DNA of 63,051 nucleotides, the filler included, from Octopus bimaculoides (taxonomy: Eukaryota): NCBI RefSeq assembly GCF_001194135.2. It is 7 parts of 7 records of this genome, joined end to end, with 100 filler letters (N's around TTAATTAATTAA, not from the genome) between each part and the next. Parts side by side here need not be neighbours in the genome. Positions count along the whole stretch, not along the records: positions 1 to 24,922 come from NC_068994.1; 6 more parts are not named here. One strand, given 5' to 3'. Under the pieces are notes generated by a model, which was not told the DNA's origin, did not search any database, and was given only the letters and a program-made list of their open reading frames with translations. A program made the translations under genes and the position numbers. Positions 7,706-24,850 of this stretch are shown one piece after another; position 1 is the stretch's first letter; the number at the start of each line of letters is the position of its first letter.

Positions 7706-7805
7706 GGCTATTATGGAGTGAATTTTAGGGCTTATAAATCTAATATTTTTTGCTATCCTTCCTTAATACTGGTTCCCGTATTCTACTCATATCTGCACTC
7801 AGTCT

Positions 7806-7910
7806 GCTTAGGAGGTTATTATGTCCTAGCATATGTGCTGCTTCTTTTTGTTTTCATATTTTCCAGAGAAAGAAGCAGCACATATACTAGGACACAATAA
7901 CCTCCTAAGC
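7806..7910. repeat. 42-bp inverted repeat (fold-back), 21-nt loop
   Basis: 7806-7847 is the reverse complement of 7869-7910 with 2 mismatches. Confidence 0.95.
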
Positions 7911-8062
7911 ATTGAAAAATACCTTAGGAATGAGAAGGCTGGAGAGTATATCAGCCGAAACATTGTGTTAACAACAAACAAGATGAGGACAAATATCAGT
8001 CAAATGTAAATAATGTAAATAATGTACATAATTCCTCATCTCTCAAATATAGAAAGATTTAC
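7911..8062 (+). mobile_element. Penelope-like terminal-repeat fragment
   Basis: ggctggagagtatatcagccgaaacattgtgttaacaacaaacaagatgaggacaaata…; inverted relative to 7035-7612. Confidence 0.65.
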
Positions 8063-8885: not shown

Positions 8886-9221
8886 AAGAGATACCGTTAT
8901 AGAAGATCATTCTTTACAATTATTATATAGTTAAATACTTTTCAGCCACAGCCATGTGTGAGCATTTCATTAGGTGGAATATGATTAATTCCTGCAGAAT
9001 TTTCCTGAATACTCTGGGTTTATAATGTATATTTCTTTCAACCAATCAAATTATCAGGTTCCAGGGTACACAAGCATAAATATGTAAGATATATTACAAT
9101 AATGCCGCCAACAACAATAACAACAACAGAGACAAGACAACCTTCGAGGTGCTCAAACTATTAATAAAAAAGAAAAAAATATATAAAAAAATTAATCTTA
9201 TTTGAGTGATAGTGGTATCAC

Positions 9222-9224
<3 letters not shown>

Positions 9225-9258
<34 letters not shown>

Positions 9259-9515
9259 GTTTAACCTCTGTTTTCCATGCTGGCATGGGTTGGACAGTTC
9301 GACCGGGGTCTGGGAAGCCAGGAGGCTGCACCAGGTTCCAGTCTGATCTGGCAGTGTTTCTACAGCTGGATGCCCTTCCTAATGCCAACCACTCTGTGAG
9401 TGTAGTGGGTGCTTTTTACGTGCCACCGGCACAGGGGCCAGAGTAGGCTGGCAATGGCCACGATCGGTTGGTGCTTTTTGCATGCCACCAGCACGGAAGC
9501 CAGTCAAGGCAGCGA
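9225..9515 (-). mobile_element. RTE LINE 3' tail
   Basis: (cat)n-cgtttaacctctgttttccatgctggcatgggttggac…ggatgcccttcctaatgcc. Confidence 0.8.
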
Positions 9516-10320
9516 GAAACTGAAAACGACTTTTAACAAATATTGAATGAAGTGTGTCAAGAGAAATATAACATTTTATTTTATTTCTCTTAACATGCTA
9601 CATTTAATACTTAGAAAAAGTCGTTTGCAGTTTCTTCTTATATTTTGATTTTGTCTTTTTTTAAAATAAGATTAATTTTGTTATATTTTTTTTTATCTCT
9701 TTTATTAATAATCACTGGTGGCAGAAGTGCCCATTTCTTATTCTGGAAAAGTACCAGTGAAATTGATATCTATATACATATAATATAAATAATAAATTAT
9801 TAAAAATATCATATATCAAAGATACAACATTCTTATCATAGTATTAATTGTGATTCTTTCAGGTGCACATGTGCATGTGAATAAAAACAATGAGACAATA
9901 TCAAGTCCCATTCTTTTAGTTAATGTTGAAGACAAGTATCGTCATTATTGATAATTTAAACAAAACATTCCAAATCGGAATTTGTAATGTAATAGTCATT
10001 GTATCTGCCTTTGTAGTAAGTGGCCATTTCTAAGAAGTTGAATTTGTGGGGAAAAGAAAGGATGTATCATGCATTGTTGCATATTGAGGAAAAGAGTTTT
10101 TCTGTAATTGTCATTTGGATGGCAATGTAGGAACTGGTTTTAGTTTGGTTTCCCAATCAATATCATGCAAAGTCATTGGTAGTAATTGTGCATGCGGTGA
10201 GGGGAGGAACCTCCTGGAAGTGATTCATGTATGATTATTGTATCATTAAAATCACATGCATCGGATGCCATACCATGTAATATTCAAGATTGTACAGGCT
10301 GGTCTGGATTGGATCTTATA

Positions 10321-10603
10321 TCCTTTATCTTTTACTTGTCTCAGTCATTAGACTGTAGCCATGCTAGGGCACCACCTTGGTGAATTTTAGTCTAATGAAT
10401 TGACCCCAGTACTTACTATTTTTAAGTCTGGTACTTATTCTATTAATCACTTTTGCTGAGCTGCTGAGTTACAGGGATGTAAATACACCAACATCGGCTG
10501 CCTGTAGTGGAAGACACTCGTCAAAGGTCTCATGCAGTGGCACTGAACCCAGAACAATGTGGTTGGGAAGCAAGCTTCTTACCACACAGCCACGTATGCG
10601 TAC
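10321..10603 (-). mobile_element. SINE family A, internally deleted
   Basis: Head (accacacagccac) and 3' body present; central microsatellite segment missing. Confidence 0.8.
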
Positions 10604-10650
10604 TTGATGTTCTTCTAGAGTGAACCAAAGCTGGATTCATGTTGAATAAA

Positions 10651-12023
10651 TCACTTGGATATTTTTGGTTTCTTGCCAGTCATGTAAATTTCAAAGTATT
10701 TGTTTTCTTCATACTTGATGATGTGCTCTCTGCATATTGTTATCCACATTAGTTGGTTCAATTCTAATTTTAACCTATTCTTGAAGGCTTAACATTGATC
10801 TAATCATTTTGTCGTAATGCATTCTGTTCATGATTGTGCTTTTTCATTAATGATTGTGTCCCATGGTTCTCTACAATCAGCGGACAAATATGTCTTATGT
10901 TGAAGGTGCTTGATGTTAACAGGTATGGGTGGCCCTTCGAGAATGCATTTTGCCTCTTCTATATTGTTGTTAGTAAACCACATCTCTTCTGTGATGATGA
11001 AGACTTTAGTGGCACAGCTGCCAAAAGTAAAGTTATCTGCAGCCTGCTATTGCATTCTTCTGCAATTCATGAGGCCATTCTTGATGCTTCTTAAAATGTA
11101 ACTATTTCCATGGTTGCTGGGTTCTTTGATATGTAGTCTGTTTTCCATGAGAGGTATATTAGGCAAATCTCAAATGTACCATGTAAGAATTTATTTAATG
11201 GGAAATATTCGAACCATGTTGAGAGATGTCTATACATCCAAGTAAGTGTTTGTCATCAACACAAATTTTTCTTTTTTCCTTCTCATATTTGCTTCCATGT
11301 TGTCATTATTCTCATCTCTGTGAATATTGATGAATGCTTGTTGAATGATGTTGATTAGATTGTTCGCTGATTTGTATATATGTTCCCCTTGTTTTCTGAA
11401 GGATATCGTTTATGTATGTCTTCAGCACTTGTTCATTATTGTTTTTATAAAGTTGAACTGCTGACCACAGACAGTATCATGTTGCTTTATGGCTATTTCT
11501 TTCTGCAGCTTTTGCTGCTATTTGTACTTTATGTCTGTTAAATAGCTTAAGAACATTTTCTGAGTAGCTGTTGTGATGTTGTTCTGTGCAATCACTCATC
11601 TTTTATAGACTTGGATTCAGTATTTAATTCTGGGTTGAAAGTGACAATATCATAGCATGTGTTAGGTCTGTTTTTCAACAAAGTCGTGAGTTTGATGAAG
11701 CTGCAGTTGTTACTCGAGTGCATAGTGTACCAGGTGATGATGTGAAAGTGAGGAATATCATTACAATGTTTTATCTTGCTTGATCTTCATTCTTGAAATA
11801 TTAAGGTGGAAGGATTTTGGCAAAGATTGCTCAGCAAGTATTTGTGTGTGTCTCTATGTCTGTAGCTTAAGACTTTGTCTGGTGAGTTGAGATATTCTTT
11901 TGACACACAAATGTACTTGTCATTTGTATCAAAGCTTGAACTCCGAGTGTAAGCTGTGATGTTGTTGCTGTTTTCTTTGAAGGCAGTGTTGAATTCACTT
12001 CTCATGCGTCTGTACTCTTCCAT
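10651..12023 (-). pseudogene. NS1: Parvovirus NS1/Rep (HUH endonuclease + SF3 helicase) pseudogene
   Basis: ATG 12023; LIFQE*…NDIPHFHIITW (HFH 11750-11742, in frame with the ATG); Tyr motif MFLSYLTDIK; eroded Walker A EPSNHGNS (11124-11101, two single-base changes from GPSNHGKS); Walker B FIITEE (11001-10984); B' AKCILEG…VNIKH (10953-10906); TGA 10653-10651. Confidence 0.9.
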
Positions 12024-12056
12024 CACTGGCAGCTGACTGTTGTATCAGTTCTTATA
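12024..12056 (-). promoter_or_regulatory. Putative NS promoter (TATA + initiator)
   Basis: TATAAG 12056-12051; CCAGT initiator-like A at 12027, 29 nt downstream; ATG at 12023. Confidence 0.5.
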
Positions 12057-12095
12057 ATAAAATTTTCGATTCCATTTGCTAACTTCTTGATTGTG

Positions 12096-13833
12096 TCAGC
12101 CCAAAATTTTACATGATGTCAGTTTATTTAGGAATCTGCCATTGTATCTGCTGAGATGTAGATGGGGATTTGTGTTATTGACCAATATGGCTCTTCCTTG
12201 AAGAACCATATCAAGTATTTCTCTGTGTAAGTGTTTGCCTGATTGAGTGACAGCTAGATGGTCATGGAAGAATCCTGGGAAAGTCAAGGCATCAGAAGTA
12301 ATTCTATCAAAGTGGCTAATGCGTGTTCTGTGGCTATTTGATGGCAACATGCTGTGACTCTATGGCAAGAGTGTAAAGTAACATCAATGTTAAAGTAGAT
12401 TATAGTCAAAGATTCATTAGGTGTCATGAGCAGAAAGTTGATGAGGATCATTTCAGGTAGGTCTCTTTAAGAGTATAAGGTGTGGTTAATGCACGTCCTG
12501 TTTGCCACTGTGAATACCAACATTTATCTTGCCTTCTTTGAATGTTTTGTCTGTGGTTGGTAGTTGAAAGTGACAGAATTAACTTCTGTGTAATTCAGAT
12601 CCTCATCATAAATTTTTTTGCATTTCTTTTTTTCAAATTTCACCAGTATTAACTCATAGTCATTTTTCCATTCATCACTGGAAGTTGGAGCTGTTGTGAT
12701 GCTGAAACAACCATCCCATGTCATATAAAGATTCTTCTTTTTCTGTTTGTTGAAGTAGATTTCTTATTTCGGCATAGAACTGTGTACTTGTAAATTGTAT
12801 TTCCTTGTCTGAGTTTAGTTGATTTCATTTCTTGCCAGACATGTAATATATTGGCTTTCATGGTATTTTTTCCTTCTTTCCTTGGTTCTTCTCCAAATGC
12901 TTTCAAGATAGTATTTGAACATGTGTAGAAGTATGAACACATTGGCATTTTACATTCATAGTAGCTGCTTGGTTGAATTTGCGAGACTCCCAAATTTGGT
13001 ATGTGAGATATCTACGAATATTTAAAAATATGGCATTGGATTTGGTATGAAGACCGTGTCATTGTTTTTGATTGTCCATTCTCCTGCTGTAATGTTGTTG
13101 ATTTTGCAAATGATGCATACTATTCTGTAAGAGGCTGTTGTCTTCAGCGTTGCCTTGTATTGAATAGACTGAATCCATGGCATTAACAAATATGGTGTGA
13201 TGAAGTCCATAGAATTTGCCATGCTATATGCAAACTTTTTGACTACTGCTATTTTAACACCTTTTTCGTGGAAGAGTTTGAATTTGTTTTCTACTATGTT
13301 CATGTCAGCCGATTTTAGATTATTTCTGAATGTTCTACTGAATGTGTAAGCTTGTTTGAATGAGTTTGAAGGGCCTGGCACAGTTGGACCAATTTGTATG
13401 CCTTCCCATCCATTTGATCCTGTACCGTTGCTCATAGTGTCACACATGTTTTCATCCAAAGCCATATTATTACAAAGATGGTCAGAAGTAGAAGGATTGA
13501 TATTAGTGTTAGCCTCTGATCGTCTGAAGTAGATATCAGATCCAAGATATGTTTACTAACAATTGCTCCAGCAAATAAGAATCTTGTAGGACTAATGTAT
13601 ATTGGGTGATCAGTAAATATCTTGTCTGTACTCAAAGTATTGATGTCTTTATTTGCAGACTCTAGATCTTTCATAGTAACATTGAGTGTGTTTTTTGGCA
13701 CCCAAGATTTCTTTCTTTCAATATCAGTTCCTGGTCCTAAGAAATCACAGCCTGGTATGGGGTATCCTTTCCTTCCTCTTTATTGGTGGTTCGAAATCAG
13801 CCTCATATTTGATGTGACACTTGGTGGTGGCAT
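12096..13833 (-). pseudogene. VP1: Parvovirus capsid VP1/VP2 pseudogene with VP1-unique PLA2 region
   Basis: ATG 13833; GYPIPGCDFLGPGTDI…PKNTLNVTMKDLES (YxGxG-type loop 13755-13726; catalytic HD eroded; stop at 13782). After a frameshift: SNGTGSNGWEG, YTFSRTFR, ITPYLLMPW, PNPMPYF, KLRQGN, DLPEMILI. 3' end at about 12096-12130. Confidence 0.75.
12123..12128 (-). terminator. Putative VP polyadenylation signal
   Basis: AATAAA overlapping a TAA (12130-12128) at the end of the capsid region. Confidence 0.45.
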
Positions 13834-13840
13834 CTTTCTG

Positions 13841-13874
13841 ACTGAGAACTATTTATGTTTTTCCTCCTTATATA
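13841..13874 (-). promoter_or_regulatory. Putative VP promoter (TATA + TCAGT initiator)
   Basis: TATATAA 13874-13868; TCAGT 13845-13841 (A 31 nt from the TATA start); ATG 10 nt later. Confidence 0.6.
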
Positions 13875-14724
13875 GGTTACCCCACATGATCTGACCTACC
13901 ACATAACATACCACATGACTATGACATCATATACGAGTGGTTTGCAATTGACAAAATCACTGGTGCTGATTCTTATACAGCATTATAATTTGATCCTCTT
14001 ATACTAGTAAATGCACTATATCTGAGGTCCCCTCAGATCTCCCCATCCCTGTCTATTGGATTGGAGGAAACTATCTTATTGAATTTAATTGAGGGTCAGC
14101 AACTGGTTGAATCTGAAGCATTTACTAGCCCTGAAGAGGATGGCTTGTCTTTTGGGTGCATGTTTTAGTTATGTCATGTAATGTGGGATCACCGTGAAAG
14201 ATTATCAAAGACTAAGGTAGCCTAGCATTTAGAGCAATTGAAGATTTTAAATGTAGGTTGTCTAAGTCTAAACAGAGTGAGGTACAAGATGGTTATCCTT
14301 AGTTTGAACTGTGAATTTGTGGTTTTGAATGAAACTAGATTATGATTGCCATGAGGTGACGAAGTTTTACATGGAGAAGAAATGTGCTGCAGGTTAATGA
14401 GAACTAGTGGGTAATATCTGCAAAGTAGAGAGCATTGTAACAGGCAACAACAAGCTGGTTGTTAACATACAGAAGACAGTGTGTTAAGGACATTGCCAAA
14501 AAAAAAAAAAAAATAGGGCCAATGCCATAGCTAATGGGGGAGCAAGGGGAGCAACTGTTCATACCTAGCAAATTTTTCAAAATTGGTGCCTTCTATAAAA
14601 TGTATTAATGATGTGTTTAAATTTGTTTGATATGTATCAGTGTCTTTTCTTTATGTGCTCACTCCCACTAACTTTAGAATCTGGCTATGCCCCTGCTTAG
14701 GACACACTAAAGTTGTACTGAATT

Positions 14725-22844: not shown

Positions 22845-24850
22845 ATAAAGTCTTACAGCTGTTTCAGGGAAAATCCAATGTATCCCTTCATCGGAGACGG
22901 TAATAGTAGAGGAATGGATTATTACATCTATAAGAGGAGAGTTGTAGCAGGAAGTGAGAGTTATGCGCTGAAAAAAGAACAAAGAAGAAACAGTACTTGG
23001 AGTGTAGCTCCATTCCAGTAGTAAACATCCATGTAAATAATCCTTGTGGGTATTTTCCGGAGATAATTGTAGTAGCAAAGGTGGATATATGTCATATTGT
23101 GTCCAGAGTACACTGTGCGTTGTTTACTCAAAGGATAGCCCAAATCAATCGACTTACAGTCACCAAAAATCACGAAGGTAAAACAATTGTCACCCTTCAC
23201 CCTAGGCAATCGGCTTCCAGCTGTGTTGTCACCTTGTGGATTCCAAAACTCCAGTAGGAATCTTCTAAAATGCAAACATGGTCCGAAAATCTCTCTTCTG
23301 GAGTTAAAGATGCTCCCTGGTATGAGCGAGTCTTCAGCAATGCATAACTTGCAATGTGTTGTCCCGTTGATGTAGGGGCTTGGGTTTTCGATGATTTTTC
23401 ATGAGATTGAGTATGGTATCCTGTCGGCTCTTATTTGCCAGACGTGACTGACCAGCAGTGTTACATATCTCCTTTCTGAGACTCTGAAAGAGGACTAATG
23501 GCTGGAAAGATGTTGCTTGAGAGAATTCCTAGTACATCCCACATATTTCCATGGGTATGTGCTGCCAGTGTTGCACCTGTTGCTGTTGCTGCCATTGGTG
23601 CTGTCGCTGATGGAGCTGGGGCTGCTGGTGTTGGTGTTGGCGTCGCTAGGGGTGGTGGTGGTGTCGGTAATATTTTTGCCTCTGAGCATGTTGCCGGTAC
23701 TGGACCTATCCTTGTTGTTGCTGTTGCTGATGTTGTTACTGCTGCTGTCACTGTCGCTGCCGTTGGTGTTGTTGGAGCTGGGGTTGCTGGTGTTGCCGGT
23801 TATGGAGAAGGCGCTGTTGCTGTGGTTACCGCTATAGCTGGTGATGGTACTGGACTTGTTGCTGCTGTTATAGTGGCTATCAGGTCTGCCACTGTGGACG
23901 TTGTCAGGTTTGGCACTGTGGTCGTCAAGGAAGCTATTGGTAAGGCTGGTGTCGATGGTAATGCTGCTGTTGTTGGCAATGTTGCTGTTGTTGTTGCTGC
24001 TGTTTATTGTGGCGGTGGTGGTGATGGTGGTGGTGCTGCTGGCTCTGTTCCCATGTCTAAGGCTGCTATCACCTCTGCCAGTGGTAATGGCATAGCTTGC
24101 AAGAACTTTGGCTTGATAGACGACCCCTTTGGTTTCACAGACAACTGCTCCTACCAGACAATTGCTGCGGTTCCTGCATGAACAACCTGCCTTTTCCTGT
24201 GCCTTAGGGGCACTAACAAGGATACTCTTAATGTTGGGGGTGCAGCTAAATGAGCCCCTAACATTGTGTCCGTTGAAGATAGGCCTGTACCTATGGGAGC
24301 TATTGAAATACTCATCTATTATTTTAAGGAATTGTCTACCTATAGGTGTTATTGTGTTAAGGGAGTGGGGGTGGAGCAAACCAAATTGTATTTCTGCAGT
24401 GCTTCCTTCTGCAGTTGTTGGGTTTCAGCATGTAGATGTGGTCCCTAAACTTGCTGGTAGCTTGGGCCTCATTATAGTATGGGCCTGCTGCATCAAAGGC
24501 TTCTTGGCTGGAAGAAAGCCTCGAAATCCTCTTACTAACACCCTTTACCAGGTTCTTGAATACAATGGGTGGGTGACAGGGGGCTGTGTTGATGCATGAT
24601 AGCCTCTCGTTCGGTTTGCGGTAGGACCTATAAGTACTGGAGCTCAGATCAAGTGTGACATCTAAGAAGTCCACTGCTGTGAGGTTGGTCTCTATGATGA
24701 TCTTCAAACCCATGGAGGTGAATGTGCTGATTAAGTCTTTCCTAAGCCTGTCTAGTGTATGGCTGTTTGCTCCCCTAGAGATGGTCAGGGTATCATCTCT
24801 GTAGAGGCCAATGAGAACAGACTGCTCTATATCTTAGAGTGTGCTTTTCC
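22845..24850 (-). mobile_element. Penelope-like element (RT + GIY-YIG), 5'-truncated and decayed
   Basis: GLYRDD RT motif (YRDD 24803-24792); VDFLDVTLDL…YRKPN…HPP; IGRQFLKIID…CSCR…GVVYQAKV…KYVGCT; CKLCIAE; 3' hammerhead. Confidence 0.92.
22850..22898 (-). ncRNA. Type I hammerhead ribozyme (Penelope-associated, minimal), U4C variant
   Basis: GUCU-CCGAUGA-AGGGA(12-nt loop)UCCCU-GAAAC-AGCU-GUA-AGAC: stems I-III close; predicted cleavage after GUA. Confidence 0.75.

Follow-up and report, generated by a model that had tools for sequence, protein, structure and literature searches.

The 63,051-nt window analysed here, seven joined parts of the Octopus bimaculoides assembly GCF_001194135.2, contains an integrated parvovirus in its first part (NC_068994.1), with a capsid (VP) pseudogene and a non-structural (NS) pseudogene on the minus strand. 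We regard it as almost certain that this element is a germline parvoviral fossil, and it very probably belongs to a cephalopod-associated lineage. A near-whole viral genome was likely captured. VP precedes NS, both on one strand, and on balance we lean slightly towards a parent virus whose native layout was also VP-first. All positions refer to the window, and the two genes are as follows:

10605-12023, minus strand: NS1 pseudogene with HUH motif, tyrosine and superfamily 3 (SF3) helicase, supported by Pfam and by alignment to the related protein P0003
12096-13833, minus strand: VP1 pseudogene with an MPP start, phospholipase A2 (PLA2) domain, Gly-rich stretch and capsid-like strands; its 3′ end lies between 12284 and 12096

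An original prediction had proposed an old germline integration of a parvovirus that retained both genes, and three-frame translation of the minus strand recovered every motif it had named, each at its predicted position. In the NS part these are HFH (11750-11742), an eroded Walker A (11124-11101), Walker B (11001-10984) and KCILEG..VNIKH (10950-10906); a tyrosine at 11622-11620 was matched by eye to one conserved in the relatives P0003, P0004 and P0006. One of the six frames matches Pfam Parvo_NS1 (E = 1e-6; 28.4 bits, the cut-off being 20), and no other Pfam family appeared at E < 0.1 across the six. Scanning all 1.84 billion representatives with HMMER gave 23 matches, 18 to the NS part and five to the PLA2 part. 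The helicase stretch matches four proteins at 46-51% identity, and P0003 (514 aa) aligns through residues 18-505 to 11969-10602 (38.7% identity), across stops and frame changes. The HUH piece pairs with P0003 at E = 2e-12, the HFH motif and the tyrosine being conserved; the HUH region of the window has no Pfam match, and its leads in Atlas are Rep/E1 domains at 0.81-0.82 only. The top PDB match by profile is Rep of adeno-associated virus 2 (AAV2; E = 1.9e-15), which also came first in Foldseek with a model of P0003 (E = 8e-15), followed by NS1 of parvovirus B19 (B19V). In that model the helicase has a predicted local distance difference test score (pLDDT) of mostly 80-95, and residues 1-160, at the N-terminal end where the HUH endonuclease of Parvoviridae NS1 is expected, lie below 50. 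Papillomavirus E1 matches the relatives more weakly, under its own cut-off. The gene is interrupted by stops at 11789, 11598, 11520, 11424, 11412 and 11049 and by frame changes near 11.6, 11.2 and 10.8 kb. Classification in the Parvoviridae rests on an NS1 with an SF3 helicase, according to the available text of PMC13426907, and the predicted NS1 of the element has this family-defining combination. The Pfam match above cut-off and the alignment along nearly the full length of P0003 thus bear out the proposed parvoviral origin, and no match to D5 or long interspersed nuclear element (LINE) proteins was found. A separate stretch at 59314-59156 on the minus strand matches the HUH region of P0003 at E = 0.009; as an NS1 remnant it was dropped, being without Pfam or profile support.

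The VP part carries, on the same strand, PGCDFLGPGT (13755-13726), SNGTGSNGWEG, YTFSRTFR, ITPYLLMPW and LRQGN. Its MPP start is the same in most relatives, its frame changes near 13.52 kb, and more stops and frame changes follow beyond. The calcium loop of the PLA2 domain is the 13755-13726 motif, and the catalytic pair is damaged. The PLA2 piece of the window is by itself under Pfam detection, and all five relatives picked up by this stretch match Pfam Phospholip_A2_4. A PLA2 in the VP1-unique region, a trait of Parvovirinae and Densovirinae, is seen here, eroded in this copy. Because P0022 matches the PLA2 piece and then, past the frame change, the piece with the Gly-rich stretch and YTFSRTFR, the PLA2 and capsid-like pieces are one gene; P0022 and P0026 both hold PLA2 and the Gly-rich/TFxRTF stretch within a single frame. 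The P0022 alignment, like that of P0003 for NS1, fits the proposal that both genes were retained, though split by stops and frame changes. Protein searches found no full-length VP relatives. P0024, P0026 and their cluster members are VP1 relatives with an extension of about 90-110 residues ahead of PLA2 and early ends whose position varies among members, the pattern to be expected if they are other endogenous copies of the lineage.

Unguided hhalign comparison of the VP with 26 monosense VPs yielded a 96-column alignment to the conserved TPW..KIFNIQVK..VFTD region (E = 0.067), pairing it with ITPYLL..ICKINNI..IFVD of the window, and a later VP piece placed LRQGN on the monosense LRTG (E = 0.49), with the motifs in the correct order. 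We take the TPW..KIFNIQVK..VFTD and LRTG regions to be jelly-roll strands; the Parvoviridae capsid protein has a single jelly roll and forms T=1 capsids. In the nine ambisense VPs the capsid motifs were unaligned. The monosense (Parvovirinae-layout) profile gave a better VP alignment than the ambisense profile, without significance in either case. In Atlas, nine of ten rows for the VP were single-stranded DNA (ssDNA) capsid clusters at 0.87-0.90, with low recognition and hence a lead only. A single-sequence model of the VP frame reached a pLDDT of 28. A codon-position model, which called 7 of 11 test frames correctly, left the VP end unfixed and a third open reading frame (ORF) unsupported.

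The element is shared well beyond the assembled individual. The stretch was found at 0.94-1.00 of its words in 12 runs from 10 samples and four studies of the host species (organism A), and at 0.94-0.96 of its words in five samples (S6-S10, three studies) after possible source samples were excluded. Three other related species (organisms B, C and D) carry it as well. In organism C a single contig of 4,223 nt, at depth 32.7, spans 10474-14490 and differs from the window by 230 substitutions and 66 gap letters; it begins within a host short interspersed nuclear element (SINE), traverses NS and VP and passes the upstream fold-back described below. A second organism C contig covers 9900-10345 at depth 30.4. 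Organisms B and D yielded most of the element in pieces with 3-7% difference, one B piece crossing the VP-NS boundary. The organism C contig and this B piece together indicate that locus and gene order are common to the species and not an assembly error. The junction with the host SINE in another species also bears out the proposed linkage of the element to flanking host repeats. Fixation in host DNA, disrupted genes and a locus common to the species, the criteria for an endogenous parvoviral element, are all observed here; the four species sharing the locus are likely octopuses. In an RNA run (one tissue set, about 6% of the run) the element drew next to no reads and the SINE thousands, which is weak evidence that it is transcriptionally silent. 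No RNA datasets were listed among those containing the words of the element.

Among the 40 of 406 substitutions that were listed, 28 fell in NS1, two of which were dropped for ambiguous frame; the remaining 26 between-species changes are distributed over codon positions 1/2/3 as 11/7/8 (p = 0.61). Since they show no codon-position bias, the decay appears neutral, with no sign of protein-level constraint in this small sample. The distance between organisms A and C is 0.060. With published rates of 3.6e-9 per year (bioRxiv 10.1101/573493) and of 2.4e-9 per generation of 1.5 years (PMC13669787), both as given in the available text, a rough minimum age would be 8-19 million years (My); this figure presumes an octopus host, and ancestral polymorphism makes it an overestimate of the split. 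From the six stops among 393 NS1 codons, integration is estimated to have been followed by about 0.125 changes per site (95% range 0.046-0.27), around four times the per-lineage A-C distance, and integration is therefore likely tens of millions of years old. The old germline integration originally proposed thus agrees with the five independent samples, the shared locus in three other species and the neutral codon pattern.

For placement within the family we used IMG/VR parvoviruses gathered by their PLA2 motif, with subfamily labels assigned from layout. The SF3 tree holds 50 rows (the window, eight relatives, 32 monosense and nine ambisense references; L027 was omitted for its weak SF3). The window and the eight relatives group together with support 99/98, and a stem of about 2.1 changes per site sets this clade off from all 41 references, which hold no PLA2-less groups and appear to be without monosense densoviruses; the window row fills 42% of the tree columns and has a long branch. 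On this sequence comparison the SF3 domain would fall neither with the densovirus genera, as it lies outside the nine ambisense references, nor within the vertebrate-infecting Parvovirinae genera, as it lies outside the 32 monosense ones. The label "densovirus-like" in the original prediction is accordingly not supported, the VP alignment leaning, without significance, towards the monosense side.

Host association comes from transcript fragments published by François et al, 2016 (PMC5013282). By eye, the Euprymna scolopes sequences DW277466, DW283133 and GBHH01003248 and the Sepia officinalis sequence FO193416 belong to the same NS1 lineage; in the supplement, eye counts gave 49 of 70 residues shared with P0004 and 36 of 37 with P0001. 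A cephalopod host is likely because these fragments belong to the same viral lineage, and the appearance of the host repeats points the same way. According to the available text of that study, avian parvoviruses are the best matches of the Euprymna and Sepia NS fragments, and the marine mollusc sequences are closest to vertebrate parvoviruses and branch outside all genera. Two Octopus bimaculoides NS fragments reported there represent, by eye, a different lineage, with an iteradensovirus as best match.

Around and between the two genes we distinguished the following features:

13875-14193, minus strand: candidate terminal fold-back at the VP end, with nested imperfect stems 13875-13898/14170-14193 and 13993-14014/14118-14141 and an 8-bp ear at 14020-14038
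13868-13874, minus strand: TATATAA box, predicted VP promoter, 34 nt ahead of the VP ATG and preceded by two CATGTG boxes
12024-12128, minus strand: VP-NS spacer, in which AATAAA (12128-12123) overlaps a stop and a TATA-like TTATAA lies about 30 nt before the NS ATG; their roles are putative
10324-10604, minus strand: host high-copy SINE-like repeat inside the NS1 3′ end, with 13 other high-scoring segment pairs in the window and very high depth in the three other species and in RNA
10269-10310, minus strand: putative NS1 Cys/His tail beyond the SINE, recognised by a two-sequence motif from P0001/P0012
9711-10268, minus strand: likely viral 3′ region, at single-copy depth in organism C from 9900 on
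9159-9710, no strand assigned: AT-rich palindrome, candidate NS-end hairpin, with arms of about 130 nt, a centre at about 9575 and AATAAA (9706-9701) on the minus strand

The span originally proposed, 10650-13875, covers the VP/NS core and is too narrow at the NS end, where the SINE splits the NS1 tail, the candidate termini lying farther out. The tail motif, picked by eye beforehand, scored best among 109,829 window positions at 10310 (31.5 versus 23.5 for the next), whereas shuffle tests of the whole tail were not significant (23 and 170 of 300). The 9711-10268 stretch has no Pfam or PDB match, and a possible small frame within it (10027-9812) is unsupported; tiles of 9720-10270 gave better folds than shuffled sequence did (z -2.1 to -3.7) and contain no long inverted repeat. 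The arms of the NS-end palindrome (9159-9203/9664-9710, 89%; 9515-9571/9579-9635, 81%; z -5.65) are split by a second host repeat at 9219-9494. The cross-species comparison covered 9900-14490, a span that ends short of this palindrome. The VP-end fold-back has a z of -2.9, its boundaries having been chosen after inspection; z ranged from -1.8 to -3.6 when the boundaries were scanned, and a value of -2.9 was reached by 2 of 45 control tiles. The VP-NS spacer has no hairpin, with fold z of about 0 to -1.1 throughout. About 4.45 kb separates the candidate termini once the two repeats are subtracted. If the element does end in the palindromes at about 13875-14193 and 9159-9710, its genome would measure about 4.5 kb; Parvoviridae have linear genomes of 4-6 kb with terminal hairpins. 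No target-site duplication was found, and Rfam returned only microsatellite artefacts below gathering scores. Two apparent resemblances were rejected: that of the DNA before the NS ATG to 13956-13990 had a score of 29, where shuffles in a similar-sized comparison averaged 26, as expected by chance, and a gapped self-alignment of the upstream region scored 40, which 7 of 500 shuffles equalled.

The VP-NS order, which the original prediction listed correctly without remarking on its oddity, on the SINE-split tail or on the candidate termini, departs from the usual layout. Of the 42 IMG/VR loci that encode SF3 together with PLA2 (10 loci without SF3 were set aside), 33 have NS before VP, nine are ambisense and none has VP before NS, and a review states, in its available text, that NS lies at the left in all parvoviruses (PMC11357303). 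This NS-left/VP-right arrangement is descriptive and not a demarcation rule, and the exception seen here may be native or a product of integration. In favour of a native order, the TATA box and the fold-back adjoin the VP start, and the long palindrome with its AATAAA lies beyond NS. The spacer measures at most about 260 nt; end-joining of monosense references would leave a median of 474 nt, with 5 of 32 at or under 260. Neither an NS remnant upstream of VP nor a VP remnant downstream of NS was found in the window. The literature searched, which included few subscription journals, contained no account of this element and none of a monosense parvovirus with VP first, and supplements of large screens for endogenous viral elements could list the locus; the available portions of PMC6631224 and PMC9616810 contain nothing on gene order or host.

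We tentatively propose, as a composite that falls somewhat short of an even prospect, that the element is a full-length fossil, termini included and fixed for tens of My, of a cephalopod parvovirus lineage of subfamily rank with a linear, monosense genome in which the PLA2-bearing VP came first. Judging from parvovirus biology, the parent would have been a linear ssDNA virus of about 4.5 kb, copied by rolling-hairpin replication, with the layout hairpin, TATA box, VP1 (PLA2 and jelly-roll capsid), poly(A) signal, internal promoter, NS1 (HUH nickase and SF3 helicase), poly(A) signal and hairpin. Over 8 million years ago, a likely octopus ancestor probably took up a duplex, genome-length copy where a germ-cell chromosome had broken; the copy would then have drifted to fixation and decayed neutrally, presumably with no protein function now.

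The same order would result if the host had captured part of a head-to-tail concatemer, or of a circle, of an ordinary NS-then-VP virus, opened near the NS 3′ end. This is the foremost competing explanation, although we consider it rather unlikely. It accords with the reference count and the review just cited, and VP homology upstream of NS has a precedent in the mole-vole element EllLut.1, where the authors, in the available text, note an assembly gap (PMC6232428). Yet under this explanation telomere remnants should separate VP from NS and an NS tail should precede VP, and neither was found; the NS tail sits at the far end past the SINE, and the fold-backs lie outside the VP-NS pair. An ambisense or bipartite parent, with a cassette inverted or two segments joined during or after integration, appears improbable. 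It would require an extra rearrangement before the four-species split, the spacer bears no inversion scar or internal hairpin, and the SF3 domain falls outside the ambisense references. On the other side, the nine ambisense references have PLA2 near the genome end, as here by TATA box and fold-back, a bipartite parvovirus is known (PMC10267136, available text), and many NS relatives stand on contigs of about 1.9-2.5 kb, though such short lengths are normal for that source.

Two further explanations concern the identity of the PLA2 gene and the assembly itself. The upstream PLA2 gene might be a separate cassette of megaparvovirus type, the true capsid gene downstream of NS having been lost: a layout of PLA2 ORF, unknown ORF, NS1 and VP has been described (PMC13426907, available text), the capsid has no significant match, and about 540 nt past NS are unassigned. 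We judge this very improbable, as P0022 and P0026 join PLA2 to the Gly-rich/TFxRTF stretch in one frame and the unguided hhalign comparison places the capsid motifs on monosense strands in the correct order; the Atlas capsid clusters, a low-recognition lead, point the same way. Finally, the scaffold is gappy, with 56,169 non-N among 63,051 bases, as a contaminating virus or an assembly misjoin might produce. But the element itself has zero Ns and many stops, is present in independent samples and shows identical order and SINE junction at single-copy depth in another species, so that this explanation is barely credible.

Several points weigh against the proposal of a full-length, natively VP-first genome. 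The capsid identity is the weakest link, with weak statistical support for the putative capsid motifs and no PDB or Pfam match to the capsid core. The VP-end fold-back is suggestive only as a viral terminus and depends on its boundaries. The NS-end palindrome is weak in this role, being AT-rich in a genome with other palindromes: two unrelated host palindromes of about 110 nt occur in 56 kb (244-354 and 7805-7911), one centred on a TA microsatellite. The two candidate ends share no significant similarity. Terminal sequence is often lost at integration junctions. The absence of an NS tail upstream of VP says little, given how poorly such tails are conserved. As the four species share a single insertion, the gene order represents one event. 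No clade members were found in the viral_contigs collection, so no gene order of a relative could be read, and the metagenome loci L001-L003 were rejected as relatives, having chance matches of 31-33 residues without SF3. The codon test likewise draws on few changes.

Compared with known systems, the element resembles viruses of Parvovirinae layout (AAV, B19V and the 32 monosense references) in its NS1 with SF3 helicase and putative HUH domain, PLA2 in VP1, putative collinear capsid motifs and monosense organisation, and differs in an SF3 domain only about 27-36% identical, a separate long stem, reversed order and a likely invertebrate host. With the nine ambisense Densovirinae it shares a likely invertebrate host and a PLA2-bearing VP1 near the genome end; unlike them, it has its genes on one strand, falls in a separate clade and has capsid motifs that do not align. 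EPV-Amdo-EllLut.1 (PMC6232428, available text) is also a germline copy of genome length that contains pseudogenes and host repeats, with VP homology preceding NS. In that element VP pieces flank NS and, according to the paper, no other species has an orthologue, whereas the present element has a whole VP1 with a TATA box before NS and a locus in four species. The beetle-associated SwaBA megaparvovirus 1 lineage, compared by description only (PMC13426907, available text), also has a PLA2-bearing ORF upstream of NS1, but its capsid gene follows NS1 without PLA2 in genomes of about 6.4 kb.

Elsewhere in the window, decayed minus-strand frames at 22960-24833 resemble, by eye, a Penelope-type retroelement with reverse transcriptase-like and GIY-YIG-like motifs, and have no Pfam match. 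Minisatellite arrays occur at 55373-55600 (36 nt units), 55998-56087 (30 nt) and 50793-50884 (15 nt). Among the IMG/VR contigs, one of 2,784 nt (L012:1-2784) has a PLA2 motif at 157 and no SF3, and is either a fragment or a single-cassette segment.

Endogenous parvoviruses are a known class; new here are the reversed gene order, which rests on one insertion, and the dating. The mollusc sequences of PMC5013282 are, in its available text, short transcript fragments, and in the literature searched this mollusc-associated lineage appears only in that form; that text gives no gene layout, termini, orthologous locus or age for them, and the present element supplies a genome layout and a minimum age. 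The element also shows that the lineage infected germline cells and is not dietary contamination, a doubt left by the available text of that study. If the VP-first order is native, it would break the NS-left rule and raise the question of how early NS1 expression is secured when the terminal promoter serves the capsid gene, the TATATAA box being the likely VP promoter. The clade combines a deep SF3 branch with PLA2 and with capsid motifs resembling those of Parvovirinae, and so bears on the origin of the vertebrate parvoviruses.

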